Positions 6,285 to 23,774 of a stretch of 31,111 nucleotides of DNA are shown here, one piece after another. The stretch's first letter is position 1, and each line of letters begins with the position of its first letter. Position numbers and translations under genes: made by a program. The DNA lies in the IMG/VR virus record IMGVR_UViG_2563366800_000008, one strand, 5' to 3'. The DNA is from a virus (Duplodnaviria; Heunggongvirae; Uroviricota; Caudoviricetes). The notes beneath the pieces are model-generated. The model did not search any database. It had not been told where the DNA came from and saw only the letters and a list, made by a program, of their open reading frames with translations.

Positions 6285-6536
6285 ATGGCTAAACAGGTTA
6301 TCACCATTGTCATTGAGGATGGCATCGTTCAGAAAAGTGACAAATCAATTAATAACGAACTACCTGAAGGGAAACTCAATATTCAGTTTCATCTTAATAA
6401 CACAAATGATGATGGTTCATTTTCGTTTCTGGTTGCTGAAGGTCTGTCAGCTATTTTCCCGATGGCGATCCAGCAGGTCACCACGTTTGTGAAAGCAAGG
6501 GTGGAGCAGGATAACCGTAAAATAATCAAACACTGA
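6285..6536 (+). CDS. Hypothetical early-region protein
   Basis: 83-aa ORF, lower GC than neighbours, 4 bp after the previous ORF. No family recognised. Confidence 0.45.
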   Translation: MAKQVITIVIEDGIVQKSDKSINNELPEGKLNIQFHLNNTNDDGSFSFLVAEGLSAIFPMAIQQVTTFVKARVEQDNRKIIKH

Positions 6537-7817: not shown

Positions 7818-8322
7818 GTTAATCCATGTTGCCCGTCGCAATCTACAACTGGACGATGACACCTACCGCTCTGTACTGATGCGAGTGACGGGAAAGCAAA
7901 GCTGTCGTGACCTGAGAGTCGGCCAACTGGAGGATGTGCTGAAGGTACTGGAGGATAAGGGTTTCATTCGTACCCGTCCCCGTTCTCCGGCTCGCCGTCA
8001 TCGTGAGACAGATATCACCGCAAAGGTCCGCAGCATCTGGCGGCAGATGCATCTTGATGGGTTTATCCGTGATGGCAGCGATACCTCACTCGATTCGTTC
8101 GTCGCGAAGATGACTGTCAGAACCAACAAAGGTAAAGGTATCGCCAGCCTGGCATGGTGCCGTGGCGATAATCTTCTGATGGTGCTGGAAAGCCTCAAGC
8201 AATGGCACCTGAGAGAAATGACAGAGGCGCTGAGTCCGCGAGACCTGGCATTTCAGGATAATCGGGGTTATGACGCCATCAACAGCCTGTATTCCAGTAA
8301 AGTAAGAAAGGTGCGCACATGA
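7795..8322 (+). CDS. gemA: GemA-like protein (Mu gp16 family)
   Basis: N-terminus MSRASLIKLIHVARRNLQLDDDTYRSVLMRVTGKQSCRDL resembles Mu GemA. ATG at 7795; the ORF-track start at 7750 is a TTG. Confidence 0.75.
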   Translation: MSRASLIKLIHVARRNLQLDDDTYRSVLMRVTGKQSCRDLRVGQLEDVLKVLEDKGFIRTRPRSPARRHRETDITAKVRSIWRQMHLDGFIRDGSDTSLDSFVAKMTVRTNKGKGIASLAWCRGDNLLMVLESLKQWHLREMTEALSPRDLAFQDNRGYDAINSLYSSKVRKVRT

Positions 8323-8726
8323 GCGAAAAGCAGAATGACCTGTTTGGTGATATCCAGGATGACAGCATTCTGGAGCACCTGGACGATGACAGTTCGGCGG
8401 AAACTGTGCGTTTCCCTGCACTGCTGACAGAACTGAATACGCTGTTGCGTGGCGAACTGACAAAGCATGGTGTTGACCCACGAATCTCTCTGGAGCTGGT
8501 CTATGCGATTAGCTGTCAGATTGGTGGAATGCAGATTTATTTTCCACGCGGCCAGACTCTTGAGTCATTGATTCGTGATATGAAAATCTGGCGTGATTTC
8601 AATGGCAGAAACATCACAGAGTTGGTTGAGCGTTACCGTGTTACCTATAAAACGGTGTATAAAGCAATCCGGAGAATGCGAAAGTTAGAGCAAGGTAAGA
8701 GGCAGCTCTCATTTAATATGGAGTGA
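8319..8726 (+). CDS. mor: Mor/C-family transcriptional activator
   Basis: 135-aa ORF; DLFGD..DD.IL.HLD...RFPALL.EL..LLRGEL and C-terminal HTH TVYKAIRRMR resemble Mu Mor. Start overlaps the gemA stop (ATGA). Confidence 0.85.
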   Translation: MSEKQNDLFGDIQDDSILEHLDDDSSAETVRFPALLTELNTLLRGELTKHGVDPRISLELVYAISCQIGGMQIYFPRGQTLESLIRDMKIWRDFNGRNITELVERYRVTYKTVYKAIRRMRKLEQGKRQLSFNME

Positions 8727-8730
8727 TAAT

Positions 8731-9054
8731 ATGGTTGGTGTGATTGTTATTAACATAGTTTGTATTATATGTGTTTTTTGGGTTTTCTTTGATGCTACTT
8801 CTAACAACATAGGAAGTTATGTTGTTAGAGACGGTGTGCGAAAAGGATGTCGCAGAGGCATACACCCTGTGGTTTGGGCTGCGCTGAGTATATTTATACT
8901 TCCTTTTATTTGGTATCTGATCAACAGGAAATCTTTATTGATCGCTGCGGAAGAATATCCAGTAAAGACTGATAAAAGCGTAAGTTTTATTATTCTACTT
9001 TTGTTGGTATCAGGATGGTTGCTCTATCGCTACAAAGATTATTTATTCTATTAA
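8731..9054 (+). CDS. Small hydrophobic membrane protein (about 3 predicted TM segments), AT-rich moron-like gene
   Basis: 107-aa ORF with visibly lower GC than its flanks and three hydrophobic stretches; followed by an intrinsic terminator. Occupies the position of C in Mu but is not a Mor/C homologue. Confidence 0.55.
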   Translation: MVGVIVINIVCIICVFWVFFDATSNNIGSYVVRDGVRKGCRRGIHPVVWAALSIFILPFIWYLINRKSLLIAAEEYPVKTDKSVSFIILLLLVSGWLLYRYKDYLFY

Positions 9055-9070
9055 GTTATAGCCAATACAA

Positions 9071-9086
9071 TGAAGCCGGTTAATCC
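9071..9086 (+). promoter_or_regulatory. Conserved motif TGAAGCCGGTTAATCC upstream of the lysis operon; candidate late-promoter activator site
   Basis: Identical 16-mer recurs at 17045-17060 upstream of the head gene; both copies lie 76-80 nt before the first ATG of an operon. Confidence 0.45.
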
Positions 9087-9097
9087 GGCTTTTTTTT
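9073..9097 (+). terminator. Rho-independent terminator
   Basis: Perfect inverted repeat AAGCCGG-TTAAT-CCGGCTT followed by a run of T residues. Confidence 0.7.
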
Positions 9098-9150
9098 CGT
9101 CCGGCACATGATGGAAGGGAAATCTAACCCACTTCCAAAGGTGCCGTTTT

Positions 9151-9741
9151 ATGAACAACACCCCCGATTCTCCCGCATTTCGCAATGCTCTTGCTTTCGT
9201 GCTCAGCGCAGAACGCGGATATGTCAATGACCCCACTGACCGTGGCGGTGAAACTAACTTCGGTATATCAGATAAACGCGACGGTGTTGCCGATGGCATG
9301 ACCGACGTTAATGGCGATGGCAAGCCTGATACTCGTATTCGTGATTTAACGGTTGAACAGGCCGGACAGATTTACTTCCGTGACTACTGGTATCCGGCGT
9401 ATTGCCAGTTATGGCCGGATGATATCGCCCTGTTTGTCTTTGATTCTGCCGTCCAGCATGGCGTCAAAAAGGCTGTCCAGTTGCTTCAGGAAGCTGTGGG
9501 TTTCACTGGCAAAAGCGTTGACGGTATCGCCGGTAAAAACACCCGTGCAGCCGTTGAGCGTGCTGACCCTGACTGGCTGCTGAACCGTTTGTTTCTGCAA
9601 CGTTCCCGCTATTACGCCGACATCATCAAAGCAAACTCTTCGCAGGGCAAGTTCCTCAACGGCTGGTTTAACCGCCTTGACAACCTCGCTGACGCCTGTC
9701 GTGAGATTTCCGGTGTCCGCTATTCGGTAGCCCGGAGCTGA
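9151..9741 (+). CDS. Endolysin, GH108-type lysozyme with C-terminal peptidoglycan-binding domain
   Basis: 196-aa ORF; N-terminal LSAERGYVNDPTDRGGETNFGI and C-terminal region VDGIAGKNTRAAVE fit the GH108 plus PG_binding_3 architecture as I recall it. Confidence 0.8.
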   Translation: MNNTPDSPAFRNALAFVLSAERGYVNDPTDRGGETNFGISDKRDGVADGMTDVNGDGKPDTRIRDLTVEQAGQIYFRDYWYPAYCQLWPDDIALFVFDSAVQHGVKKAVQLLQEAVGFTGKSVDGIAGKNTRAAVERADPDWLLNRLFLQRSRYYADIIKANSSQGKFLNGWFNRLDNLADACREISGVRYSVARS

Positions 9742-9742
9742 T

Positions 9743-9961
9743 ATGGGCAAGGGATGGGACGCTTCGCTGAAACAGGGACGACGTGACCGGCTGAGGCAGG
9801 AAGTTCTTCACCGAATAGCAGGTGGCCCCGTCCCCGTTCCGACAAGTTATGCAGGTCATGACGGTACACACGCCAGTTACTACATGCGCGGCTGGTCATC
9901 CGTCGATATCAGAGACATCGTCTGGCAATGCCAGCGATACAAGGAAAAACACAATGTTTAA
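9743..9961 (+). CDS. Hypothetical lysis-cassette protein
   Basis: 72-aa ORF starting 2 nt after the endolysin stop; no TM segment or lipobox seen. Confidence 0.4.
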   Translation: MGKGWDASLKQGRRDRLRQEVLHRIAGGPVPVPTSYAGHDGTHASYYMRGWSSVDIRDIVWQCQRYKEKHNV

Positions 9962-10361
9962 ATCGTTTAGCTGCGACTGGTTAAGGCTGGCACTGGTACA
10001 GGTTTTGCGCTCCGGATGGAGCATTGTCATTCTCGTCGGCCTGTCGCTGTTCATCTGTAGTTTCTCAGGCCGCCAGGCATTTATGGTCTGGTGGCTGGCA
10101 CTCTCCGGCGTGGTTCTGATCGGATTCAGTATCTTTCTTGGCAATCTTCCGTACAGGCTTCTTAAACCTGAAATGCATATCAGCCGGCATGCCCGTTTCT
10201 GGGCGTGGGTCATCTGGGTTGTAGGCGGTTTTCTTCTCATTCTGAGCCAGCTATATGCCACCCCGTTATACCTGATTCTTCTTACACCAGTGGGTGCTGC
10301 AATCGGCGTTCTTTTCTGTATGTGGGTTGAACGTAAGGGGCTTCTTGCATGGATCCAGTAA
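9954..10361 (+). CDS. Integral membrane protein (about 4 TM segments), possible lysis or holin-associated protein
   Basis: ATG 9954 with AAGGA 8 nt upstream; strongly hydrophobic throughout. The ORF-track start at 9822 is an out-of-context extension overlapping the previous gene. Confidence 0.55.
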   Translation: MFKSFSCDWLRLALVQVLRSGWSIVILVGLSLFICSFSGRQAFMVWWLALSGVVLIGFSIFLGNLPYRLLKPEMHISRHARFWAWVIWVVGGFLLILSQLYATPLYLILLTPVGAAIGVLFCMWVERKGLLAWIQ

Positions 10362-10957
10362 CCATCTCTACCGTTGCCAGCGTTCTGATGAAGGCAGGAC
10401 CGTCGTTACTGCGTACCGTGGGCGGCTGGTTCGGTGGCGACACCGCCAGAACGGCAGATTCTGTGGCGGGGATCGTTGAGAACGTCAACAGCGTCATCAA
10501 CCCGCAGGACCAGCAGCGGGTGCTTGAGCAAAAACTGGCGGCGCTGCCGCCAGAACAGTTCGTCCAGCTCCAGTCCCTGAAGGTCCAGATTGAACAATTC
10601 CAGCTTGAGCGGGACAAAGCCGTACTGGCTGACCGTCAGGCTGCCCACCATGAACAGCAGGAAACCATCCGTAACGGGGACAACGCCACGGATGAATATG
10701 TCCGTCAGACCAGACCGCTGATGGCCCGGCTGTCGCTATACAGCAGCATTGCGTATGTGATGCTGATGTCTGTGGGTCAGCAGGCTGGCGCGGTATCCGG
10801 TGCTTTTGGTCATGCCTTCTCCATGCCATCACCGGACTGGGATATCGCACTCATGCTGGCGACACCGGCGCTTGGGTATCTTGGTTTTCGTACCCTTGAC
10901 GGGTTCGCCCGGTACAGCAAATCCAGCAAACACAAAACGATGGCGGCGGGTAGATGA
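10349..10957 (+). CDS. Putative holin (3-TM holin family-like)
   Basis: 202-aa ORF with an N-terminal hydrophobic segment, central coiled coil and C-terminal hydrophobic segments; sits in the lysis cassette. Family assignment is from memory. Confidence 0.5.
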   Translation: MDPVTISTVASVLMKAGPSLLRTVGGWFGGDTARTADSVAGIVENVNSVINPQDQQRVLEQKLAALPPEQFVQLQSLKVQIEQFQLERDKAVLADRQAAHHEQQETIRNGDNATDEYVRQTRPLMARLSLYSSIAYVMLMSVGQQAGAVSGAFGHAFSMPSPDWDIALMLATPALGYLGFRTLDGFARYSKSSKHKTMAAGR

Positions 10958-16958: not shown

Positions 16959-17060
16959 CGTCATGACGGCACGTGAAAAAATCGTTAAACGCGCCACAGC
17001 GTTTTTAAACGTGTTTTAAACGCGGTTTCATGCCGCGTTTACAGTGAAGCCGGTTAATCC
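16959..17060 (+). promoter_or_regulatory. Head-operon upstream regulatory array: palindromes, 9-mer repeats and the shared 16-mer
   Basis: Palindrome CGTCATGACG (16959-16968), CACGTG (16970-16975), three direct TTAAACGYG copies (16985, 17005, 17016) and one inverted copy forming a 9-bp stem (17017-17041), then TGAAGCCGGTTAATCC (17045-17060), 61 nt before the protease/scaffold ATG. Confidence 0.5.
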
Positions 17061-23665: not shown

Positions 23666-23774
23666 CCTCTCTCAGCGTTTCGATGTTAACCGGCTTGAGC
23701 AACTGCCCCTACGGCAGTTGCTTATTCAGGTCAGGCAACTGAGGAAGCAATATGACAAACCGCCTAAGCACTGA
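23589..23774 (+). CDS. Possible frameshift extension of the tail assembly chaperone
   Basis: ORF in the +1 frame overlapping the chaperone's last 77 nt and ending just inside the tape-measure gene; G-runs at 23600-23605 and 23615-23620 lie in the overlap. Confidence 0.3.
   Translation: MTCWGRLPNGGDMMPMAAALNLLLINLSQRFDVNRLEQLPLRQLLIQVRQLRKQYDKPPKH

Follow-up and report, generated by a model that had tools for sequence, protein, structure and literature searches.

The stretch of DNA analysed here (31,111 nucleotides, hereafter the window) is a Mu-like prophage of E. coli, and DNA that is 99.9–100% identical to it is present in three complete E. coli genomes. Its genes are arranged in the order transposase, MuB, kil, Gam, GemA, Mor, an ORF of 107 codons (X107), a hairpin, a GH108 endolysin (lys) and a homologue of Mu gp18, which is followed by a 135-aa multi-TM protein, a 202-aa protein, TraR and DUF2730, the family of the Mu gp25 releasin, and then by the genes from terminase onwards. 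The principal features of the region are listed in Table 1. The Mor protein of the window shares 63% identity with Mu Mor and 35% with Mu C. No second Mor/C copy could be found, either in the window by tblastn or in the whole annotated prophage. Another small low-GC ORF of the early region, at 6285–6536 (83 aa, GC 0.40, GC2 0.27, annotated as hypothetical), may represent further accessory cargo. Comparison of window positions 1 to ~2400 with the prophage of E. coli CAVP776 (L010) showed that the initial 60 bases of the window do not match those found at the corresponding position in CAVP776; there, the prophage interrupts a DUF932 gene belonging to a CP4-44-like island, beside the cbtA/cbeA toxin-antitoxin genes. 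Thus, the same phage has inserted at more than one place in the chromosome, which is expected of a phage that transposes.

Table 1. Features of the mor–lys region and the second operator copy (window coordinates)
Feature	Position	Strand	Basis
mor, sole Mor/C-family activator gene of the prophage	8319..8726	+	Pfam PF08765, E = 1.8e-30
Exchangeable cassette (mor 3' tail and cargo gene)	8690..9068 (approximate)	+	Sister-prophage comparison
Shine-Dalgarno GGAG of X107, within the end of mor	8720..8723	+	Direct sequence reading
Cargo gene X107 (ATG start, TAA stop, 107 aa)	8731..9054	+	ORF call
Mor-operator-like 16-mer AATGAAGCCGGTTAAT	9069..9084	+	14/16 match to the Mor site of Mu Pm, AGTAAAGCCGGTTAAT
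Intrinsic terminator (hairpin and T8)	9072..9097	+	Stem 9072-9092, T8 9090-9097; RNA fold
Inferred -10 hexamer CATGAT of the Mor-dependent lys-operon promoter	9107..9112	+	Gap-free alignment with Mu Pm
Endolysin gene lys (GH108 and PG_binding_3), first gene of the putative Mor-dependent operon	9151..9741	+	Pfam
Second Mor-operator copy AGTGAAGCCGGTTAATCC	17043..17060	+	Upstream of head protease gene (ATG 17121)

The start codon of X107 lies 4 nt after the mor stop and 7 nt after its GGAG motif. Among 40 prophage genes, X107 has the lowest GC content (0.352 against a mean of 0.528; z = −4.5) and the lowest GC3 (0.315 against a mean of 0.567; z = −3.5). Because GC3 is low as well, the AT bias is not explained by the hydrophobic amino-acid composition alone. 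The homologues of X107 are likewise atypical in base composition, being AT-rich compared with the surrounding phage genes. They are of equal length and share 38 invariant columns in an alignment of nine sequences, and the pairwise dN/dS is ~0.15 (17 distinct alleles among the matches listed), compared with 0.05 for mor and 0.10 for lys. Conserved length, invariant columns and purifying dN/dS together establish X107 as a real gene encoding a constrained protein.

X107 is predicted to be a small inner-membrane protein with three TM helices. Kyte–Doolittle hydropathy identifies hydrophobic segments at residues 1–20, 47–64 and 84–100, and the AF2 model (43-sequence alignment; pLDDT 87.7, pTM 0.75) places helices at 2–24 (TM1), 46–64 (TM2, kinked) and 83–100 (TM3), together with an amphipathic helix at 66–75 and a short β-hairpin at 30–42. 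Conserved residues include D21, A22, I27 and G28 of the short β-hairpin loop and the pattern R66...A73...P77 of the amphipathic helix. K+R counts are ambiguous with respect to topology (3.6 for loop 1 and 4.8 for loop 2). Exactly two cysteines are present in the C-terminal extension of 15 of the 19 long homologues, which favours a C-out and hence N-in orientation, so that the likely topology is N-in/C-out with the conserved β-hairpin loop facing the periplasm. No specific structural neighbour of the X107 model was found. The features that an earlier sequence-only reading had picked out at this locus, namely, an ORF visibly lower in GC than its neighbours, a 107-aa product with about three TM segments and a terminator-like hairpin behind it, were all confirmed.

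X107 is a full-length member of phrog_36430 (PHROGs v4; E = 1e-71, residues 1–107 on profile positions 1–107 of 107), a family that itself lacks functional annotation. Searches of Pfam, NCBIfam and PADLOC with X107 and its homologues returned nothing significant, the best hits being sub-threshold DUF7859 and DUF6111. The membrane domain PLDc_N, whose pattern (W..D ... W...P..Y..R) we presumed to resemble X107, was dropped as a candidate after no HMM match was obtained even at E ≤ 10. Nor was any sequence or fold similarity found between X107 and described exclusion or defence proteins. Among 5.8 billion proteins, the close family accounts for nine clusters, each from Enterobacteriaceae, and every close-family gene with a checked context is located in the same mor–X–hairpin–GH108 slot. 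Against phage records, megablast detected no close DNA relative, and tblastn detected an X107 homologue only in Klebsiella phage Kp4866-3 (unverified record). We found no description of either the mor–hairpin slot or the X107 family in the published literature.

An exhaustive profile search extended the family to a wider superfamily of 63 representatives at E < 1e-3, with W17, D21, A22, I27, G28, W49, Y62, L63, R66, L69, A73 and P77 as near-invariant positions. The superfamily includes versions of 99–103 aa, two of which are encoded in FluMu-like phages just upstream of mor. Other members have 180–445 aa and contain the module, sometimes duplicated, as their N-terminal membrane part. Contigs encoding these long homologues are mostly short; in one of them the gene has an HTH_3 regulator and an rve integrase as neighbours, which hints at a mobile element. 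The two FluMu-like homologues (L131, 5001–5309; L133, 5001–5306) are 26–34% identical to X107, adjoin a gene with an HI_1489_N domain on their upstream side and have a nearly native GC content, just slightly under that of their neighbours. The terminator hairpin that the FluMu-like phages have behind mor is a different one (ACCCGCC...GGCGGGTTTTT).

The hairpin behind X107 has a stem of eight pairs (seven Watson–Crick and one G–U) and a folding energy of −15.1 kcal/mol (z = −2.7). An identical hairpin, AAGCCGGTTAATCCGGCTTTTTTT, is found directly after mor in Mu, where the mor stop is followed by 6 nt and then by AAAGCCGGTTAATCCGGCTTTTTTT; the Mu record annotates a predicted terminator at 9179–9200 within the Mor-activated middle promoter Pm at 9163–9233. 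The primer used to clone Pm starts at Mu nt 9163 and thus includes the hairpin (PMC9239132). In Mu Pm the Mor dyad is located at −51 to −36 (PMC4287176), which, with the Pm numbering reconstructed from the primer table of PMC4390567, identifies AGTAAAGCCGGTTAAT as the Mor site. Apart from the two differences within the 16-mer, the window and Mu are identical through the remainder of the hairpin, its T-run and the CGTCC that comes next. CATGAT aligns to the Mu hexamer, which would put the transcription start near 9120. The hairpin is retained at slots occupied by other cargo and at empty ones, including that of Mu, and is conserved in at least 100 related loci among the matches listed, whatever the cargo. 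Because it is identical behind Mu mor and persists irrespective of what precedes it, the hairpin is, on comparative grounds, a backbone element: a conserved early terminator combined with a Mor operator, and the counterpart of the predicted post-mor terminator of Mu. The hairpin is therefore not, as the sequence-only reading had it, the gene's own terminator.

The position of X107 was also reconsidered in relation to Mu C. In Mu, the order is mor, hairpin/Pm, gp18, gp19, gp20, C, terminator/Plys and lys, with C located ~800 bp further on, after gp18–gp20 in the middle operon. X107, in contrast, is inserted between mor and the hairpin, at a site represented by 6 nt in Mu, and the gp18 homologue is found downstream of lys. 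Moreover, at least 12 relatives without C have an empty slot, from which it follows that the absence of C and the carriage of cargo are independent. The absence of C is thus a trait of the lineage unrelated to cargo, and the proposal that X107 occupies the slot of C and replaces it has to be abandoned.

To describe the slot across relatives, viral contigs were scanned for the hairpin, yielding at least 120 loci (redundant copies kept), which were classed by tblastn and ORF calling. In at least 34 loci the mor stop and the hairpin are separated by 5–6 nt, that is, the slot is empty; these comprise both true Mu types and C-less GH108 types. A distance of 333–347 nt was observed in at least 22 loci, which carry members of the X107 family (at least 17 distinct alleles, 103–111 aa, 44–100% identical). 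In at least 41 loci the distance is 497–549 nt and the slot contains one of two unrelated families (at least 28 and at least 13 loci, respectively) of 159–178 aa, most with two cysteines. Proteins of the larger family have a signal peptide or an N-terminal anchor, and those of the smaller family a signal peptide. The GC content of all cargo types is 0.32–0.44, versus 0.47–0.58 for the flanks. We also considered whether the two-cysteine tails of the long X107 homologues are related to the alternative cargo families in a Rosetta-stone manner, and whether these two families are related to each other; both ideas were rejected, since hmmsearch and hhalign gave no signal (best probability 7.7%).

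Comparison with closely related prophages delimits the exchanged segment. The window is 96–100% identical to L002 and L110, and 80–96% identical to L004, on both sides, and identity collapses only at ~8690–9068. L002 and L110 are E. coli sister prophages that carry one or the other of the two alternative cargo families. Identity to them breaks at ~8665–8700, within the last ~12 codons of mor, and resumes at ~9065, just before the operator. The variable cassette thus includes the last ~12 codons of mor. For Citrobacter relatives, identity is 91–96% in the flanking proteins but only 68% in the cargo protein, and several pairs of near-identical backbones display saturated synonymous divergence in the cargo gene (pS 0.82–0.88). 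This pattern indicates replacement of whole alleles by recombination rather than fast evolution in place. Taken together, the comparisons show that the slot between mor and the terminator/operator hairpin is a hotspot with four states, empty or occupied by one of three cargo families, and that enterobacterial Mu-like phages exchange at least three AT-rich cassettes horizontally at this site, X107 among them, each of which excludes the others. The view of X107 as AT-rich, non-core cargo is thereby upheld: the slot may be empty, contain X107 or contain unrelated genes, and sister prophages swap the cassette.

A second copy of the operator sequence bears on the control of the head genes. AGTGAAGCCGGTTAATCC occurs twice in the window, at 9069–9086 and 17043–17060, versus 0.01 matches expected by chance, and 60 nt separate the second copy from the head protease gene downstream of it. 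Relatives have the full hairpin with its T-run at the F/protease junction in all 22 cases not adjoining mor among the matches listed. Mor-operator-like sites thus lie ahead of the lys operon as well as the head protease operon, and the prophage has a single Mor/C-family gene, which supports the earlier suggestion that late transcription is run by one activator. The likely arrangement, judging from these sites, is a two-tier cascade in which one Mor probably drives both the lys and head operons via a combined terminator/operator module. A reversed copy of the operator core with one mismatch was also noted on the minus strand at 23685–23696 (GTTAACCGGCTT on the plus strand), in the intergenic region between tail chaperone and tape measure genes; it is followed at 23697–23735 by a GC-rich hairpin (GCAACTGCC...GGCAGTTGC) and then TTATT.

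A consensus scan of the plus strand between 8000 and 10500 found no sigma-70-like promoter, although a weak or unusual promoter could escape such a scan. Reading by eye, we noted a weak TTGGTT-N18-TATAAA (8/12 matches) inside mor, ~70 nt upstream of X107. The early operon would thus end with X107, for which the scan gave no separate promoter.

The following scenario accounts best for these observations. X107 would be translated as the last gene of the early (Pe) transcript from a good Shine–Dalgarno sequence, starting 4 nt after mor, and transcription would stop at the backbone terminator. The DNA of the hairpin would then serve as the Mor operator of the promoter driving lys, gp18 and the genes that follow, and the second operator copy would place the head operon under Mor control. 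By analogy with Mu, X107 would not be expressed in the repressed lysogen. The protein would act at the envelope in phage–phage or phage–host conflict, its likeliest role being superinfection exclusion or a block of DNA entry during lytic growth, like T4 Imm. As a whole, this reading of X107 as swappable early-operon cargo engaged in envelope-level conflict, most likely superinfection exclusion, comes close to an even chance in our judgement without reaching it. Taken by itself, the assignment of function to envelope-level conflict, with superinfection exclusion in lytic growth foremost, is more tentative still; it is suggested by the facts that all alternative cassettes encode envelope proteins and that alleles are swapped among near-identical phages. 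Three considerations weigh against the scenario. First, early-operon expression is deduced from Mu and, if correct, the protein is absent from the repressed lysogen, which would be atypical for classical prophage exclusion genes. Second, the distant homologues in FluMu-like phages are located upstream of mor and have nearly native GC, and the X107 family may thus have an older, phage-intrinsic early role. Third, the K+R counts of the two loops are ambiguous as to topology. Independently of its function, lysis, late transcription and morphogenesis do not require X107, which is itself an ordinary accessory membrane protein, uncharacterised and located in a recombination hotspot.

A bolder version of the envelope-conflict reading can be formulated, which we consider possible but doubtful. 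According to it, the mor/Pm junction of enterobacterial Mu-like phages is a dedicated hotspot whose envelope proteins, of three or more families that exclude one another, serve exclusion, defence or counter-defence, and X107 is the founding phage member of an undescribed module. Equally speculative is the further proposal that this module, a three-helix unit with the signature W..xDA...IG...W...P..YL..R..L...A...P, also anchors two-cysteine domains, presumably periplasmic, in many uncharacterised bacterial proteins. If the cassettes do serve exclusion or defence, the slot amounts to a natural swap experiment, in which one backbone is combined with an empty slot or with three types of cargo, and could help to uncover novel anti-phage mechanisms acting at the envelope in clinical Enterobacteriaceae (E. 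coli, Klebsiella, Citrobacter, Enterobacter).

Alternatively, X107 could be an early host-takeover or counter-defence factor that perturbs a target in the host inner membrane and thereby favours Mu-type replication; division, transport, stress signalling or a membrane-bound abortive-infection effector would be candidate targets. That X107 closes the early region, which also contains kil, gam and gemA, is consistent with this, as are the membrane-anchor role of the module in many longer proteins and the FluMu-like homologues beside gemA/mor, whose near-native GC suggests a long-standing early role. However, X107 is dispensable in many close relatives, and the alternative cassettes are predicted to encode periplasmic proteins (with a signal peptide or anchor) rather than membrane proteins, which makes a target common to all cassettes hard to see. 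Known partners or motifs were not found for X107. We regard a host-takeover role as unlikely, yet deserving more weight than the alternatives that follow.

X107 might instead be a lysogenic-conversion moron, expressed from a cryptic promoter in the repressed prophage and altering the envelope or excluding phages in the lysogen. Cargo that is AT-rich, polymorphic for presence and absence and targeted to the envelope would suit such a role; AT-rich DNA can carry cryptic promoters, and the weak TTGGTT-N18-TATAAA in mor could be one. The plus-strand scan, however, produced no passing site, X107 abuts mor with a gap of 4 nt, the terminator belongs to the backbone, and a promoter within mor would fall in sequence conserved for coding reasons. 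For the same reasons (no plus-strand promoter found, the 4-nt gap and the backbone terminator) X107 does not qualify as a moron in the strict sense of a gene with its own promoter and terminator, as which it had been described. A conversion role therefore seems improbable to us.

We consider it very unlikely that X107 is a holin, pinholin or antiholin for the soluble GH108 endolysin encoded directly downstream. Its length of 107 aa and three TM helices do resemble class I holins, no SAR domain was seen at the N-terminus of the endolysin by direct reading of its sequence, and no holin is annotated in the cassette. But a terminator and a putative Mor-dependent promoter intervene between X107 and lys. 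X107 thus belongs to the early unit, and the holins that have been confirmed are encoded by late genes (PMC9239132). Furthermore, in relatives whose GH108 cassette is 92–100% identical, X107 is absent or replaced, the replacements being signal-peptide or anchored proteins predicted to be periplasmic. The C-terminal tail of X107, YKDYLFY, consists of seven residues with one basic and one acidic, there is no dual-start motif, and no match to a holin family was obtained. Better candidates are encoded downstream, namely, the 135-aa protein with four TM segments and the 202-aa protein with C-terminal hydrophobic segments. Given its separation from lys, its loss or replacement beside the same lysis genes, the lack of a charged C-terminal tail and of a dual-start motif and the late expression of holins, X107 is not the holin of the cassette. 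Nor is it conserved core lysis machinery of typical composition: the same GH108–gp18–TM135–p202 cassette occurs with the slot empty or filled by another gene, in agreement with the non-core status proposed previously. Finally, the notion of a chance ORF or decaying remnant without function, which the lack of a matched annotated domain and the very small close family might invite, has practically nothing left to recommend it and is effectively refuted by the conserved length and invariant columns, the dN/dS across the 17 distinct alleles among the matches listed, the confident AF2 model and the detection of remote homologues.

Several observations on the lysis genes themselves emerged from this comparison. 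Profile phrog_2121 (284 positions) matches the 72-aa gp18-like protein at positions 3–74 and the 202-aa protein at positions 89–275, implying that the two are one protein in some phages. In the window, the 135-aa multi-TM ORF lies between the gp18-like and 202-aa ORFs and overlaps both (9743–9961, 9954–10361 and 10349–10957). The Mu spanins gp23/gp23.1 have no detectable homologue in the window. Eight loci of true Mu type (L104, L109, L012, L019, L047, L068, L070 and L112), with Mor 87–99% identical to that of Mu and with both C and the Mu SAR endolysin gp22 present, contain a GH108 homologue between Pm and gp18. Such contigs appear to encode two endolysins.

What this analysis adds is the assignment of the hairpin, the four-state polymorphism of the slot and the sequence support for a two-tier cascade with a single Mor. 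For the annotation of Mu-like prophages, this means that a hairpin following the cargo gene should be read as the conserved early terminator and putative Mor operator. The probable use of one Mor at both the lys and head promoters in this lineage is useful to know whatever the function of X107.

Comparison with known systems places these findings in context. With the early terminator/Pm region of Mu, the window shares the identical hairpin AAGCCGGTTAATCCGGCTTTTTTT, the Mor site (14/16), equal spacing to the −10-like hexamer and a gp18 homologue in the downstream operon. It differs in that the Mu hairpin follows mor after 6 nt and the promoter drives gp18–gp19–gp20–C, whereas in the window a cargo gene is wedged before the hairpin, the promoter would drive the endolysin directly and there is no C. 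Lambda S105, a class I holin, is similar to X107 in size (~105 aa), in its three TM helices and in adjoining the endolysin gene. However, X107 and the endolysin gene are in separate transcription units, and X107 is not retained together with the lysis genes, lacks a charged tail at its C-terminus and has no sequence similarity to S105, which is N-out/C-in as opposed to the N-in/C-out topology favoured for X107.

T4 Imm, P22 SieA and HK97 gp15 are superinfection-exclusion membrane proteins, and T4 Imm and Sp are early genes. X107 has no sequence or fold similarity to Imm, SieA or gp15, and the likeness is by analogy only: X107 too is a predicted small inner-membrane protein, non-essential and variable between relatives, and T4 Imm is made early in lytic growth, as X107 would be. 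Phage morons in the sense of Hendrix and Juhala are accessory cargo genes forming an autonomous promoter–gene–terminator unit. Like them, X107 is present or absent among close relatives, low in GC, dispensable lytically, horizontally exchanged and predicted to encode an envelope protein, but it is not autonomous: the scan revealed no separate promoter, and the terminator behind it is the early terminator/Mor operator of the backbone. In this respect, X107 is more like the optional genes of the semi-essential early region of Mu than like morons.
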